Assembly (NCBI GenBank): GCA_021513715.1 | Contig: CP084167.1 | Span: 416,001-480,000 of the forward strand | Reading direction: 5' to 3' | Source: Candidatus Heimdallarchaeum endolithica | GTDB taxonomy: Archaea > Asgardarchaeota > Heimdallarchaeia > Heimdallarchaeales > Heimdallarchaeaceae | DNA: 64,000 bases | Part shown: positions 2,749-46,144 of the stretch, piece after piece | Position numbering within the stretch: the stretch's first letter is position 1 | Layout: each line of letters begins with the position of its first letter | Translations under genes and position numbers: made by a program | Notes under the pieces: model-generated | What the model saw: only the letters and a program-made list of their open reading frames with translations | What the model was told of the DNA's origin: nothing | The model's database searches: none

Positions 2749-5700
2749 ATGAAAAAGAATAATTTTATTCATTCATTACTTCTATTAATTATAATTGCTG
2801 GTATTTTATTTTCATCTATTTTGTTAGGTTTAAAGTTTAGCTATTATTGTGATAATCAAACTAAACAAAATTTACAGACAAATAATTCTCTCAACTATTT
2901 AAATTTAAATACTGAAAACGAGTATGTACTAGAAGAAACTGAAAATAATACTTTAGCTACTTTGTTTAGATTTGCGGTACAAAAGCCTTCAACCTTTTGG
3001 AATTTTAGTACTGGTGGAGCAGTGAGGTCTTCTCCTGCTATAGGTGACATTGATGGTGATGGAAAACTTGAAGTTGTTTTTGGTAGTGATGATTACAAAC
3101 TATATGCACTAAATGCAGAATATGGTCAGCTTTTGTGGTCATTTTCAACTGGTTTCAAGATCCATTCTTCTCCTGCTTTGGGAGATCTAAATGGAGATGG
3201 AAAATTAGATGTTGTTGTAGCTAGTGAAGATTTTGTGGTTTATGCTATTAATGGTGAAAATGGTTCATTAATCTGGAGTTATACTACAGGAGGAACCATT
3301 TACTCTTCTCCCGCTTTAGGTGATATTGATGGAGATTCCAATTTGGAAGTAGTGATAGGAAGTCTTGATGGAAAAATTTATGCTTTTAACGGTGAGGATG
3401 GCTCTTTTCTCTGGAGTTATACAACTGGAGGTCAAGCAGGACATTCTTCTCCTGCTTTGGGAGATCTAAATGGAGATGGAAAATTAGAAGTAATAGCATG
3501 TTCTGATGATGACAAAGTATATGCTCTATTTGGAGAAAACGGTTCTTTGTACTGGAGCTATTCAACAGGGGGAAATGTTAGATCTTCTCCCGCTTTAGGG
3601 GATCTAAATGGAGATGGAAAATTAGAGATTATTGCAGCAAGTTATGATGACTACATTTACGTAATAAGAAATAATGGTTCATTGTTATATTCATTTTACT
3701 GCTATTCTGTTTATTCTTCTCCCGCTTTAGGAGACATAGATGTAGATGGAAGAATTGAGATAGTAGTAGGAAGTCGTGATGATAAAATTTATGCTTTTAA
3801 CGGTGAGGATGGCTCTTTACTCTGGAGTTATACAACTGGTAATGACGTACTTTCATCTCCTAGCTTAGCAGACATAAATGAAGATAATAAACTAGATGTA
3901 ATTGTTGGAAGTTATGACGGTTTCCTATATGGATTATACGGTTCTAATGGAACGAAAATGTGGACAGATTATGTGTTTAATGAGATCCATAGTTCACCTT
4001 TAGTTGAAGACATAAATAACGATGGTGAAATAGAAGTAGTTTTTGGAGGCTATAGTAACATCATGTATGCCATAAAACTAGAAGTAACGAGTCACAGAAT
4101 TTATTGGTCAGGTCTAAGTGCGGATAACTCTTTTACACGTACAAAAAACATGATTGATACCGATGCGGATTTAGATTATTTATCAGAGGATTATGAAGAA
4201 TTTTTGTCAACTAATCCCAACTCTAACGATACTGATGGAGATGGATTAACAGACTTAGATGAAATTTTTATTGTTGGTACAAATGCAACTAACAGTGATA
4301 CTGATAATGATGGAATAAATGATAATGATGATGATAATGACGAAGATGGATTAACAAATGGTGAAGAAATTAATATTTTCTTTAGTGACCCAAATAACAA
4401 TGATACAGATGGAGATGGATTAACTGATGGAGATGAAGCTTCAACTTATAACACTAATCTTTTTAAAGAAGATACAGATGGGGATGGATTAACAGACTGG
4501 GAAGAAGTTACCATATCAAACACAGACCCTAATGACAGTGATACTGATAATGATGGAATAAATGATTATGATGATGATAATGATGCTGATAATTTAACAA
4601 ATGGTGAAGAAATTGATATTTACTTTAGTGACCCAAATAACAATGATACAGATAGCGATACTTTATTAGACGGAGATGAAGTATTTACCTACAACACTAA
4701 TCCTAGCAGTAATGATACAGATAGCGATACTTTATTAGACGGAGATGAAGTATTTACCTATAACACTAATCCTAGCAGTAATGATACAGATAGTGATAAA
4801 CTTCTAGATCAATATGAAATATTTACTTATAGTACAGACCCTAATGATCCTGACTCAGATGATGATGGGTTAAGTGACGGTGAAGAAGTTTTTCTGTCAA
4901 AGACAGACCCTAATGACAGTGATACTGATAAAGACAGTTTAAATGATTATGATGATGATAACGACGAAGATGGATTAACAAATGGTGAAGAAATAAAAAA
5001 CTATGGTACTGATCCTAACTCCTCTGATACAGATAATGATGGTCTTACTGACCCACAAGAAATATTTTTATATTCCACTGATCCAACTAATAATGATACA
5101 GACAGTGATTGGTTGCTTGACTATGATGAGATTTATACATACAATACTGATCCTTTAGACCCTGATACTGACGATGATGGTATGCCTGATGGTTGGGAAG
5201 TAACCTATAATCTTGATCCTTTGACTGCAAATAGCGATAAAGATATTGATAGTGATGGTTTAACCAATCTTCAAGAGTATCAACATAATACTAACCCCAG
5301 AGACTCTGATACTGACGATGATGGAATACCTGATGGTTGGGAAGTAACCTATAATCTTGATCCAATAATTGATGATGCCAATAATGACACTGATTCCGAT
5401 GGTTTGTCAAACTTACAAGAATACCAGAATAACACTAACCCTAACGATTCTGATACTGATGATGATGGTATAACAGATGGTGAAGAAATTTTAACTTATG
5501 GAACAGACCCTAATAAGACCGATACTGATAGCGATGGGTTAACTGATATTAAAGAAGTTTTAACATATTACACAGATCCTAATAATAACGATACTGATGG
5601 GGATAATTTGCGAGATGGAGATGAGGTATATTCCTATAGTACTGATCCTCACAATAATGACACTGATGACGATGAACTTTTAGATGGAGATGAGGTACAT

Positions 5701-44700: not shown

Positions 44701-46144
44701 TGAAGTTTATTCTGGATTGAATCCTTTAATTAATGACTCTGGTACTGATTTAGATGATGATGGATTAACCAATCTTGAAGAATTTAATTTGGGTACTTTT
44801 GCTAATAGCACTGATACAGACAGTGATGCAATGAATGATTTATGGGAAGTTCAAACGGGAACAAATCCAACAATAGACGATTCTGCTGTAGATTTAGATA
44901 ATGATACCTTATCTAATTTAGACGAATATAATCTTGGTACTTTTGCAAACAACTCTGATACTGATAATGATGGAATGTTTGACGGTTATGAAGTTTATTC
45001 AGGTTTAGATCCTTTTGTTGATGATGCAAATTCTGATTTAGACAATGACGGATTAACTAACCTAGAGGAATTTAACTTGGGTACTTTTGCTAATAGCACT
45101 GATACAGATAGCGATTTTATGGACGATTTGTGGGAAGTTCAAACGGGTACAAATCCAATTATAAATGATGCTAATTCTGATTTAGACAATGACACTTTGT
45201 CTAACGTAGATGAGTATAATCTTGGTACTTTTGCAAACAATTCTGATACTGATAATGATGGAATGTTTGACGGTTATGAAGTTTATTCAGGTTTAGATCC
45301 TTTTGTTGATGATGCAAATTCTGATTTAGACAATGACGGATTAACTAACCTAGAGGAATTTAACTTGGGTACTTTTGCGAATAACACAGATACAGATGAT
45401 GATGGTTTAACTGATTATGAGGAAGTGAAAGAATACTTTACCAATCCTATCGATAACGACTCTGACAATGATGGATTAACTGATTATGAAGAAGTGAAAA
45501 TTTATGGAACTGACCCAAATGATGAAGACACGGATGGTGATGGAGATCCTGATGGTAAAGAAATAGAAAATGGTCTCGATCCTCTCAATCCTAAATCTAA
45601 TTTAGAACACAAAGAAAAAGTCAAAAGGATTATAACTCTCGTTTCTATAATCACTGGAGCTGTTGTCGCAACTATTAGTATTACTTTTTTGACTTTTGTT
45701 GGAATTAGACTTTATCTCAGAAAAAAGGCTTCTACTTTAGGCTTTTCTTCGGTTAAAGAAATGTTTTCTGCTAAAAAACTAGGATTCAAGGATAAATTGG
45801 AGTGGGAGCAAATCTCTTCTTTAGGTTATAATACTAAATCAGACTATCTTAAAGCACTTAAAAGAGAAGAAAATTATAAAACTCTTATTAACCTACTTAA
45901 TCAATTTAAACCCAATATCCCTGTTACATTGCAAAGATTATCAGAACTCTCAGGATTTTCTAAGAAAAAAGTTGAAGAGTATATCAATGATATTCTACGT
46001 TCTAACCCTGATATTGGTGAGTATTATGAACTTGAACAGTCTTTCATTAGAAAGGAAACCATAGAAATTGAAAATGAGATAGACAAATTACTCAGTAAAT
46101 ATCGAGATTGGGAAGCTGTAGGTGAAGGTAAAAAGAAAGAATAG
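41777..46144 (+). CDS. Giant receptor-like membrane protein: two FG-GAP regions (GWP repeats), DxDxDG stalk, TM helix, 3 GF repeats, winged-helix-like domain
   Basis: SLAVADIDGDTELEII..WNGDGTIVPGWPK repeats, 69-bp and 288-bp duplications in the stalk, TM ITLVSIITGAVVATISITFLTFVGI, tail EIDKLLSKYRDWEAVGEGKKKE. Confidence 0.85.
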   Translation: MKQAKAYCRKENKGLGLTIIVLFLIISQIVVSLAISGNSGKGILNFEQNSLEDNRNEGFYKEAKIDDFNLDDINKYKSEETKNDYTTDKVSKALTSFGNWPIYVGGELKGGPGAGDIDGDGNYEIVVGTLNGLIRVYEIDGTESLSWSGGKNIGVAITSTPMLANIDNNPATDEIIVGTANGSVYAFFGNGSIIPGWPVDCEGAVEESLAVGDINGDGNNEIVIGSNSTKVYVFDADGTIVGGWPKTTEGAVIVAPVLDDVDNDNISDIIVGSTDGKLYVWKGNGAILTNFPIDLSESITHPLAVADINQDGTIDIACPAGSNLYLLANNGTTIHSWKASYGVKPEWLGPIIADINWDREYEIVALSREGELKIYSFTGDTLSNYDLITNIAINMDPVITDIDNDINWEMLYCSSSNIYSINFDSSSTNEMLLSGYVQITGMINILGKYLFYTDSSGYFLSAENVHQTVYNWEKINFNSINNRFNSYIYYYTVVSGWPKIINSRSLAVADIDGDTELEIIVGCTDGYENKVYVWNGDGTVVLGWPKTVSGDAHSLAVADIDGDKELELIVGSSGGVYVWNSDGTYVTEWPKLINCSSLAIADIDGDTELEIIIGNNSGVYVWNGDGTIVPGWPKTSGGRSLAVADIDGDTELEIIAGYSDQVYIWNSDGTVVPGWPKTISGYCYSLAIADIDGDTKIEIITGYNGGIIIWNGDGTIVPGWPKTIYDFYCSLIVVDIDGDTELEIIAEHGDLYNGGIIIWNGDGTIVPGWPKTSGGRSLAVADIDGDTELEIIAGYSDGYEEKVYAWNSDGTVVPSWPKMSGGYSLAIADIDGDTELEIISTSVGGVHIWNSMGTGYAPFYTYSVNIRRTGTYIDTDNDGLFDHEEELLRTDPSKVDSDNDGLPDGDEINIFSTDPTKVDSDNDGLPDGDEINIFSTDPTKVDSDNDGLPDGDEIKIYFTNPNIKDTDSDGMYDGYEVYSGLNPLINDSGTDLDDDGLTNLEEFNLGTFANSTDTDSDAMNDLWEVQTGTNPTIDDSAVDLDNDTLSNLDEYNLGTFANNSDTDNDGMFDGYEVYSGLDPFVDDANSDLDNDGLTNLEEFNLGTFANSTDTDSDFMDDLWEVQTGTNPIINDANSDLDNDTLSNVDEYNLGTFANNSDTDNDGMFDGYEVYSGLDPFVDDANSDLDNDGLTNLEEFNLGTFANNTDTDDDGLTDYEEVKEYFTNPIDNDSDNDGLTDYEEVKIYGTDPNDEDTDGDGDPDGKEIENGLDPLNPKSNLEHKEKVKRIITLVSIITGAVVATISITFLTFVGIRLYLRKKASTLGFSSVKEMFSAKKLGFKDKLEWEQISSLGYNTKSDYLKALKREENYKTLINLLNQFKPNIPVTLQRLSELSGFSKKKVEEYINDILRSNPDIGEYYELEQSFIRKETIEIENEIDKLLSKYRDWEAVGEGKKKE

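Follow-up and report, generated by a model that had tools for sequence, protein, structure and literature searches.

Three genes of Candidatus Heimdallarchaeum endolithica, located in the 64,000-nucleotide stretch of DNA analysed here (the window; bases 416001–480000 of a single-contig 3.33-Mb genome of 31% G+C), encode large surface proteins with propeller heads and repetitive acidic stalks, whose predicted cytoplasmic tails differ greatly in length and all end in the same short motif. What is this shared end, and what could it do on proteins that otherwise vary so much? The genes are all on the forward strand, each as an open reading frame (ORF), at 2749–7767 (gene 1, P0001, 1672 amino acids [aa]), 34491–39323 (gene 2, P0002, 1610 aa) and 41777–46144 (gene 3, P0003, 1455 aa). 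An initial annotation of the locus quoted the three C-termini exactly, and took their last helix to be the docking peptide of a mix-and-match receptor system. We find that in nearly all of the proteins that carry it the motif is the last helix of a larger module, likely a winged helix of the PCI type with a terminal helix after it, that ~18 surface receptors and ~11 cytoplasmic proteins share this module in one Asgard genome, and that assembly or docking is, on balance, its probable role.

The terminal motif and the module that it closes

The motif, IDxLLxx[FY]xx[WFY]E-x4-GK, stands at the C-terminal end of the tails of all three proteins; in gene 1 it is AIDLLLRSFQEYERSGFGKK (7696–7764) and in gene 2 it is AISNIDKLLEEYDKWGNKGKKVN (39252–39320). 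A profile of the last 24 aa was searched against the 8,837 stop-to-stop ORFs (at least 60 aa long) of the genome and matched 22 of them at E < 0.01, each match being 0–2 residues from the stop. When the six reading frames were searched without ORF calls the same 22 were recovered in this genome; the sister genome gave 12 and another genus of the family 10. This recurrence is far beyond chance, and the enrichment at C-termini that the initial annotation had proposed as a check is found both within the genome and in the protein library described below.

For 21 of these 22 proteins the motif forms the final helix of a conserved ~90-aa module; alignment A1 was built from the motif carriers and A2 as a broader profile. 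In gene 1 this module (winged helix, terminal helix and GK) spans 7501–7764, as delimited by A1, an AlphaFold2 (AF2) model and a local hmmsearch, and in gene 3 it spans 45863–46141 and ends in GKKKE (local hmmsearch E 2e-18; weak Pfam PCI match, E 0.019). Gene 2 is the only motif carrier with a helix-only tail: it has no winged helix, and its terminal helix (motif profile E 3.1e-5; six-frame search E 2.5e-6) starts 10 residues after its transmembrane (TM) helix. The local hmmsearch with A1 found 28 ORFs with the module, in all of which it ends no more than five residues from the C-terminus, and gene 2 with its lone helix brings the family to 29.

These carriers are very different proteins. Eighteen are type-I proteins with a TSP3 stalk and a propeller or beta-helix head, six are cytoplasmic leucine-rich repeat (LRR) genes (two of them split by stops and one decayed), one is a WD40 protein, and there are four helical proteins and L017, a small soluble PCI-like protein. 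The other receptors that were scanned include ten with NosD-type right-handed beta-helix heads and four with propellers, and Pfam detects TSP3 repeats in all of these except one. Counted from the side of the stalk, 34 ORFs of the genome combine TSP3 repeats with a following TM helix; 13 of them have tails of 5–33 aa, and 17 of the 21 with longer tails carry the module. The family is also concentrated on the chromosome, with 21 of its 29 genes within 418–795 kb, or 11% of the genome. The mix-and-match system of the initial annotation therefore stands as a type-I family in which the heads are swapped above a shared cytoplasmic C-terminal element, but it is not specific to receptors, since LRR, WD40 and helical proteins carry the same module.

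A profile search of a library of 1.84 billion proteins gave 314 cluster representatives at E ≤ 0.001, and details were taken from the best 150. Of these best matches 124 reach the end of the module profile, and 118 of the 124 stop within four residues of their own C-terminus. Every library match has a winged helix directly before the terminal helix, and the parts in front of the module are diverse, including single- and multi-pass membrane proteins, tetratricopeptide repeats, LRRs, zinc ribbons and UFL1-like winged-helix arrays. The named database relatives all come from metagenome-assembled genomes of Heimdallarchaeota, Heimdallarchaeaceae or Kariarchaeaceae, and are annotated as "hypothetical" or after their head domain. 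Among 301 sampled Asgard genomes 92 have a match to the module, and those matches that span the full length, terminal helix included, are concentrated in the family and class to which the window belongs. Judged from these distributions, the family is expanded in the Heimdallarchaeaceae, and the module with its terminal signature is specific to the Heimdall group.

Conservation was measured in 113 modules that are non-redundant at 70%. In the terminal helix I72 is conserved at 94%, D73 at 77%, L75 at 94%, F/Y79 at 97%, E83 at 87% and G88 at 88%, and K89 is present in every aligned row, a value that is partly circular as rows had to reach the profile end. The strongest positions of the fold core are R5, L28, W39 and L40, and I72, L75, F/Y79, E83, G88 and K89 equal or exceed them; in this alignment, then, the terminal helix is the most conserved part of the module. 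Gly-Lys occurs in 119 of the 138 tails that have the helix, another residue precedes the lysine in 17, and Gly-Arg occurs in none; only 1–3 residues follow Gly-Lys in 115 of the 119, and the position after the lysine tolerates arginine (9%). The terminal helix has a mean net charge of −3.3 and a hydrophobic moment of 0.35–0.63, the last seven positions have a mean net charge of +1.8, and the net charge of the winged helix is negative. What looks like an abbreviated form of the motif is present in the TSP3 receptor at genome positions 517438–520512, whose 24-aa tail ends in ...TLEEIDVLGKKY, with ID.L and GKK and without the middle of the helix.

Fold of the module and a probable docking role

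The AF2 model of the gene 1 module (predicted local distance difference test [pLDDT] 78) runs from a helix and a strand through a pair of helices and a beta-hairpin wing to two terminal helices, the first short and the second long. AF2 models were used for structure searches with Foldseek and VIA, and PCI proteins head both lists, with MarR and IclR regulators ranking low. The best structural match of the winged-helix part (model residues 1–60) is Rpn12, with a Z of 7.5 that is middling by the tool's calibration and a root-mean-square deviation (rmsd) of 1.7 Å over 57 aa at 30% identity; further matches are CSN3, yeast Rpn12, PCID2/LENG8, Csn12, Sac3, eIF3k, CSN7 and DDRGK1/UFL1 (the latter at Z 4.9–5.1). 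Sequence domains were assigned by Pfam cut-offs: the PCI profile scores 29.5 bits on the paralogue L017 (cut-off 22), and stays below threshold on gene 3 (15.6 bits) and on L006, L002 and the gene at 309690 (18–21 bits). The tails alone gave only marginal Pfam matches (HRDC E 0.0017, PCI E 0.019). Profile searches of PDB sequences gave no significant match; the best hit of A1 was a P450 (E 0.12), and that of A2 was the PCI domain of eIF3e (E 0.17, not significant), aligned on the core R...IS..LA..L....E.W. Searches of NCBIfam and the ESM Atlas returned nothing usable. From the models and these scores we consider the module to be a PCI-type winged helix plus a terminal helix; its membership of PF01399 is likely, not proven.

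PCI domains hold together the proteasome lid, the COP9 signalosome (CSN) and eIF3, and the C-terminal helices of the subunits of these complexes differ from each other. The module, unlike the PCI domains of those subunits, sits at the ends of TM receptor tails and of LRR and WD40 proteins, and its own signature, IDxLLxxFxxxE-x4-GK, is nearly unchanged among the 29 paralogues; no MPN partner or lid-like complex is known for its carriers. What it shares with the PCI domain (PF01399, PF10075; PDB 4b0z, 4d18, 1rz4), and especially with Rpn12, CSN8 and eIF3k, is the winged helix with a C-terminal helix right after it, and the sequence core on which eIF3e was aligned. The module is, in short, a PCI-type assembly domain in a new setting, with a terminal signature of its own. 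The pre-eukaryotic history of PCI domains is poorly known. In the literature that could be searched, including an ESCRT (endosomal sorting complex required for transport) survey that mentions helix-turn-helix (HTH) and PCI domains in Asgard proteins (PMC10936438), we found no published description of the terminal motif, of the module on TSP3 receptors, or of the GF repeat described below.

A second likeness is to DDRGK1 (UFBP1) and UFL1 (PDB 8b9x, 8c0d, 8ohd), where a membrane-anchored protein likewise ends in a PCI-like winged helix, which joins the winged helices of a partner. Unlike the module receptors, DDRGK1 is anchored at its N-terminus and has no ectodomain, and no split winged helix is evident in the Heimdall proteins. 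Pfam E3_UFM1_ligase matches occur on more distant module-bearing relatives, and the E3_UFM1_ligase match within this genome (position 2186264) belongs to a different gene that encodes a UFL1-like winged-helix protein. Pfam DDRGK and Ufm1 found nothing in the genome, and no full module gene lies closer than 24 kb to the one weak UFC1-like E2 (25.8 bits), at 533.9 kb. The relation to the DDRGK1/UFL1 platform is thus one of fold similarity only (Z ~5). Two other Pfam PCI matches exist in the genome, on a 1002-aa ORF and on what is by sequence a small HTH regulator, and neither protein ends in the module.

We infer that the module is a common protein–protein assembly or docking plug that ties together many receptors and cytoplasmic proteins, and we hold this to be the probable reading, with modest confidence. 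Outside the cell each receptor would present a variable head on a calcium-binding TSP3 stalk (an FG-GAP propeller in genes 1–3 and a right-handed beta-helix in ten paralogues), and inside the module would link the diverse receptors and the LRR, WD40 and helical carriers to each other or to one common cytoplasmic partner, such that one inside machinery would serve many outside heads. A shared binding site is suggested because near-identical helices are found on very different proteins; this site could be on a common partner or arise in a symmetric assembly of interchangeable subunits. The reading as a plug is suggested because PCI winged helices and the helices that follow them assemble the lid, CSN and eIF3, and a general assembly plug is favoured over a receptor-specific signal because the same module ends cytoplasmic LRR, WD40 and helical proteins. 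The earlier view of the terminal helix as a tail docking peptide is retained as to docking, which is its most plausible function, and is modified as to the unit involved, which is the module in 21 of 22 carriers and the helix alone only in gene 2. In gene 2 the terminal helix may dock alone: the 19-residue C-terminal helix of Rpn12 by itself binds the lid helical bundle and triggers assembly and the joining of lid and base (PMC4601081), and this is a precedent for docking in trans by a helix-only tail. If the module is such a plug, it would be a testable handle on how the many sensors or adhesins on the outside of an Asgard cell are connected to a single machine within, and would also bear on whether PCI-based assembly and ubiquitin-type membrane signalling predate eukaryotes.

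Several observations weigh against reading the module as a PCI-type docking plug. Besides having a middling score, the Rpn12 match covers the winged helix only; with the terminal helix included the rmsd is 13.8 Å, so the modelled position of that helix is tentative. Pfam PCI has no match on gene 1, and for the window genes the sequence support is marginal. An N-terminal half of helical repeats is usual in PCI proteins; the model here covers the last 90 aa, and by eye the stretch before the winged helix looks helical or coiled-coil in gene 1 and in the soluble members. In a survey of the neighbours within 4 kb of the 29 family genes no adaptor was found as a candidate partner. Finally, docking by itself explains neither why the near-terminal residue is lysine and never arginine nor why it is so close to the C-terminus.

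Other explanations of the shared end

The lysine and the relatives of the module together give rise to the strongest rival, in which the near-C-terminal lysine accepts a ubiquitin-like modifier, the winged helix recruits the conjugation machinery as DDRGK1 and UFL1 recruit UFC1, and the receptors are thereby sorted or degraded, for example through ubiquitin and ESCRT. We think this unlikely. In its favour, the lysine of Gly-Lys is kept in 119 of 138 tails, with no Gly-Arg and with 1–3 residues after it in 115 of the 119, and yet the very next position takes arginine; some library relatives continue past the winged helix and helix into a zinc ribbon, a RING-H2-like finger and a lysine-rich end; in other Heimdall genomes membrane proteins with GF repeats have a RING-like finger at the end, in one case after winged-helix-like stretches; the TSP3 receptor at genome positions 725380–729321 has a RING-like tail in place of the module; the genome encodes ubiquitin next to Vps4, three E2/UEV-type (ubiquitin E2 variant) genes and the UFC1-like E2; and DDRGK1/UFL1 are among the fold matches (Z 4.9–5.1). 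On the other hand, the module also occurs on LRR and WD40 proteins that are soluble, none of the family members has a gene for an E1, E2 or E3 next to it (the UFC1-like gene being at least 24 kb away), the Ufm1 and DDRGK profiles are silent in this genome, and a conserved lysine can equally be a binding contact. A hybrid of docking and modification, by which Heimdall receptor tails, LRR/WD40 scaffolds and RING-finger paralogues would assemble via the PCI-type plug under the membrane and the terminal lysine would take a ubiquitin-type modifier for ESCRT sorting or turnover, is in our opinion a tentative idea with a small chance of being right; if true, the system would be a prokaryotic forerunner of both PCI complexes and ubiquitin-dependent receptor down-regulation. 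We are similarly doubtful that the terminal helix is a free linear motif which docks an adaptor or trafficking factor that lacks the module (e.g., a Vps4 MIT-type domain or a coat-like protein), the winged helix being accessory. The tail of gene 2 retains the helix alone, which starts 10 residues beyond the TM helix, the receptor at 517438–520512 has an abbreviated form in a 24-aa tail that ends in EEIDVLGKKY, and the genome has one MIT protein, Vps4. The C-terminal MIT-interacting motif 1 (MIM1) helices of ESCRT-III, with the consensus (D/E)xxLxxRLxxL(K/R), resemble the terminal helix in their hydrophobic spacing of i, i+4 and i+7 at the extreme C-terminus. However, the arginine that defines MIM1 is replaced here by variable residues and its final basic residue by the conserved E83, and MIM1 was rejected as an identification in spite of the fitting spacing. 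Moreover, 21 of 22 motif carriers and every library match have the winged helix directly in front, no second helix-only tail besides that of gene 2 was found in 31 genomes of the family, and gene 2 itself may have arisen by a recent deletion, no orthologue with such a tail being detectable in the sister genome.

The amphipathic character of the terminal helix would also suit a membrane-binding helix on the inner membrane face that holds down tails and soluble carriers like the C-terminal helices of MinD or FtsA: its moment is 0.35–0.63, Phe/Trp residues lie on one face, the end is basic (+1.8), the position is strictly C-terminal, and such a helix would anchor the soluble carriers. We consider this quite improbable, in that the helix carries a negative mean net charge (−3.3) and conserved D73 and E83, such an anchor would be superfluous on proteins with a TM helix of their own, and the constant pairing of the terminal helix with a PCI-type winged helix would be unexplained. 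The fold itself would permit a membrane-tethered transcription factor, whose winged helix binds DNA after proteolytic release of the tail, and MarR and IclR regulators do appear low in the fold lists. PCI-type rather than DNA-binding winged helices top both lists, however, both the recognition-helix position (−1.6) and the wing (−1.1) have a negative net charge, LRR and WD40 scaffolds carry the module at their ends as well, and neither a cleavage site nor a protease partner was seen; the chance that this explanation is correct appears very small. Least credible of all is a dilysine KKxx retrieval signal of the eukaryotic COPI (coat protein complex I) type, which the initial annotation had raised from the ends of gene 2 (KKVN) and gene 3 (KKKE). 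Only 8 of 22 tails in the genome and 23 of 119 library tails fit KKxx or KxKxx; the last residues are GKK in gene 1 and GKI, GKV or GKLE in many relatives, and soluble proteins carry the same end.

Three further identities of the motif were considered and rejected. The consensus of the WH2 actin-binding motif is an amphipathic helix with LKK[TV] after it. Here a nearly invariant glycine takes the place of the leucine of LKKT and the spacing exceeds that of WH2 by ~3 residues, nor is WH2 strictly tied to the C-terminus. In an acidic dileucine signal, [DE]xxxLL, the −4 position is acidic, and here it is mostly Ala. The terminal helix is also not a decayed RING helix, as relatives with a RING still have this helix, with the finger placed behind it.

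The RING-H2-like finger with its zinc ribbon (...H..H[LF]xEW[VI]KxxGxCPxC) was observed at the cytoplasmic ends of a number of Heimdall membrane proteins, examples being L036 (664–2424, reverse strand), L037 (379–3021, reverse strand) and the library proteins P0109, P0117, P0122, P0127, P0129, P0134, P0144 and P0149. It follows GF repeats in some of these proteins and the same winged helix and helix in others, and six more ORFs of the genome end in such a finger. Separately, genome positions 1704921–1711218 encode Vps4 (with its MIT domain), ubiquitin and an E2/UEV-like protein less than 7 kb apart, a ubiquitin–ESCRT cluster as described for Asgard archaea.

Receptor architecture, tail repeats and neighbouring genes

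ORF neighbourhoods, Pfam domains, hydropathy and sequons were computed from sequence, and the topology that follows is predicted rather than measured. Gene 1 encodes a signal/anchor, an FG-GAP propeller, a TSP3 stalk, a TM helix and a tail of 580 aa (Pfam FG-GAP_3 118 bits, TSP3_bac 158 bits, Beta-prop_ACSF4 176 bits). Its propeller head (aa ~83–455; 2995–4113) has 8–9 blades with DxDxDG calcium loops, by Pfam and a count of blade motifs; the TSP3 stalk (Pfam TSP3_bac; 4156–5943) ends in the outer juxtamembrane sequence GFDPINPKSNL (5911–5943); and the TM helix found by the hydropathy scan (aa 1075–1093; 5971–6027) is followed by a cluster of Lys and Arg. Gene 2 has an anchor, an FG-GAP propeller, very long TSP3 repeats, a TM helix at 39165–39230 (hydropathy scan) and a 30-aa tail. 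Gene 3 has an anchor, two FG-GAP propeller regions, a TSP3 stalk, and then GLDPLNPKSNL and the TM helix (together 45572–45706 by hydropathy and motif scan), followed by a tail of 150 aa. FG-GAP or FG-GAP_3 and TSP3_bac are above the Pfam cut-off in all three proteins, whose only TM helix apart from a hydrophobic N-terminal segment lies ~30–37 residues past the last TSP3 repeat. The juxtamembrane G[FL]DP[IL]NPKSNL that had been noted in genes 1 and 3 is indeed present in both. It is placed outside the membrane, where the last TSP3 repeat ends, and most paralogues have less strict versions, [DN]P[LI]N..SN.

A Lys/Arg cluster follows the TM helix in each of genes 1–3, after which the tails measure ~580, ~30 and ~150 aa; these lengths replace slightly different earlier ones for genes 1 and 3, and the gene 2 tail is, as had been said, essentially the motif alone. 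The ectodomains contain 26 (gene 1), 53 (gene 2) and 16 (gene 3) NxS/T sequons and the tails contain none, including the 579-aa tail of gene 1. Because of the signal/anchor, the positive-inside Lys/Arg cluster and the confinement of sequons to the ectodomains, we infer that the tails are cytoplasmic and that the three are type-I membrane proteins. The shared receptor layout proposed initially (anchor, FG-GAP propeller, acidic sequon-rich stalk, one TM helix and tail) is thus borne out by Pfam, hydropathy and sequon counts, and prediction places the tail inside the cell as proposed.

The name "integrin-like" that had been given to these proteins fits only in part. Integrin alpha subunits share with them a type-I layout, an N-terminal FG-GAP calcium-binding propeller and a cytoplasmic tail. 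In contrast to integrin alpha, however, the stalk here is made of TSP3 repeats, and Pfam finds thigh/calf immunoglobulin domains (Integrin_A_Ig) neither in the three proteins nor in the genome; Lys/Arg clusters only, and no GFFKR, follow the TM helices; and ten paralogues have a beta-helix head instead. Pfam Integrin_beta likewise found nothing in the genome, but control genomes were also silent, so that search is not validated. Propellers of the FG-GAP/VCBS kind are widespread in prokaryotes (PMC3192720, PMC8023676), and by their domain content the heads are ordinary prokaryotic FG-GAP/VCBS propellers, not integrins.

The stalk of gene 2 (34491–39323) is built from dozens of ~23-aa units that hardly differ from one another (DTDSDGLLDGEEVLTYSTLPTNN and close variants), a sign of very recent repeat expansion. 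No orthologue of gene 2 with a short tail was found in three related genomes, the sister genome included; the sister genome has a beta-helix/TSP3 protein with a 12-aa tail that is without the motif.

Much of the long tail of gene 1 (6112–7158) consists of 25–26 tandem units of a 14-residue repeat, GFxTKxEWxxAxxx (the GF repeat), which were delimited by a unit list and a profile and have no Pfam match. Three GF-type 14-aa units are present in the gene 3 tail (45728–45862; match to the gene 1 repeat, E 4.1e-5), and shorter runs are also found in the paralogues L001, L005 and L014 and, by eye, in L016. The repeat occurs in 22 of 47 genomes of the order and, in the cases read, in membrane proteins. 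When nine units were folded by AF2 as a single sequence without an alignment, each unit formed one helix of 9–10 residues (pLDDT 93.4, although confident single-sequence models of idealised repeats can be wrong). As for structural counterparts, the best Foldseek match had an E of ~1 and the best VIA match a Z of 3.9, far less than helical models usually give as background, and a homologue search with the repeat as query found nothing, which is weak evidence. The GF repeat may, if the model holds, be a new helical repeat fold without a solved counterpart.

Recurrent neighbours of the 29 family genes in the 4-kb survey are insertion sequence (IS) transposases (DDE, rve), ABC ATPases and LRR genes, and the transposases that lie beside family members may drive the shuffling of paralogues. 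In the window, an IS remnant (33334–34026, reverse strand) encoding an rve-type integrase with an HTH_32 domain is located just upstream of gene 2, and a second IS remnant, an ORF at 7739–8332 (forward strand), overlaps the end of gene 1 and was grouped by BLAST with three other ORFs, including a DDE transposase beside the paralogue L018. Between genes 2 and 3 are two tandem paralogous ORFs on the reverse strand (39478–40410, 310 aa, and 40581–41456, 291 aa) that have no Pfam match. Elsewhere in the genome, LRR-plus-module genes at 309690–311396 and 653453–654382 are each broken by one in-frame stop (TGA in the first), and could be pseudogenes, sequencing errors or cases of recoding. At 481040–482635 and again at 789005–790876 the same two genes sit side by side on one strand, their reading frames meeting without a gap; one encodes a helical protein, the other an LRR protein, and both end in the module. 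This pair may be a conserved soluble two-gene unit of the module system.

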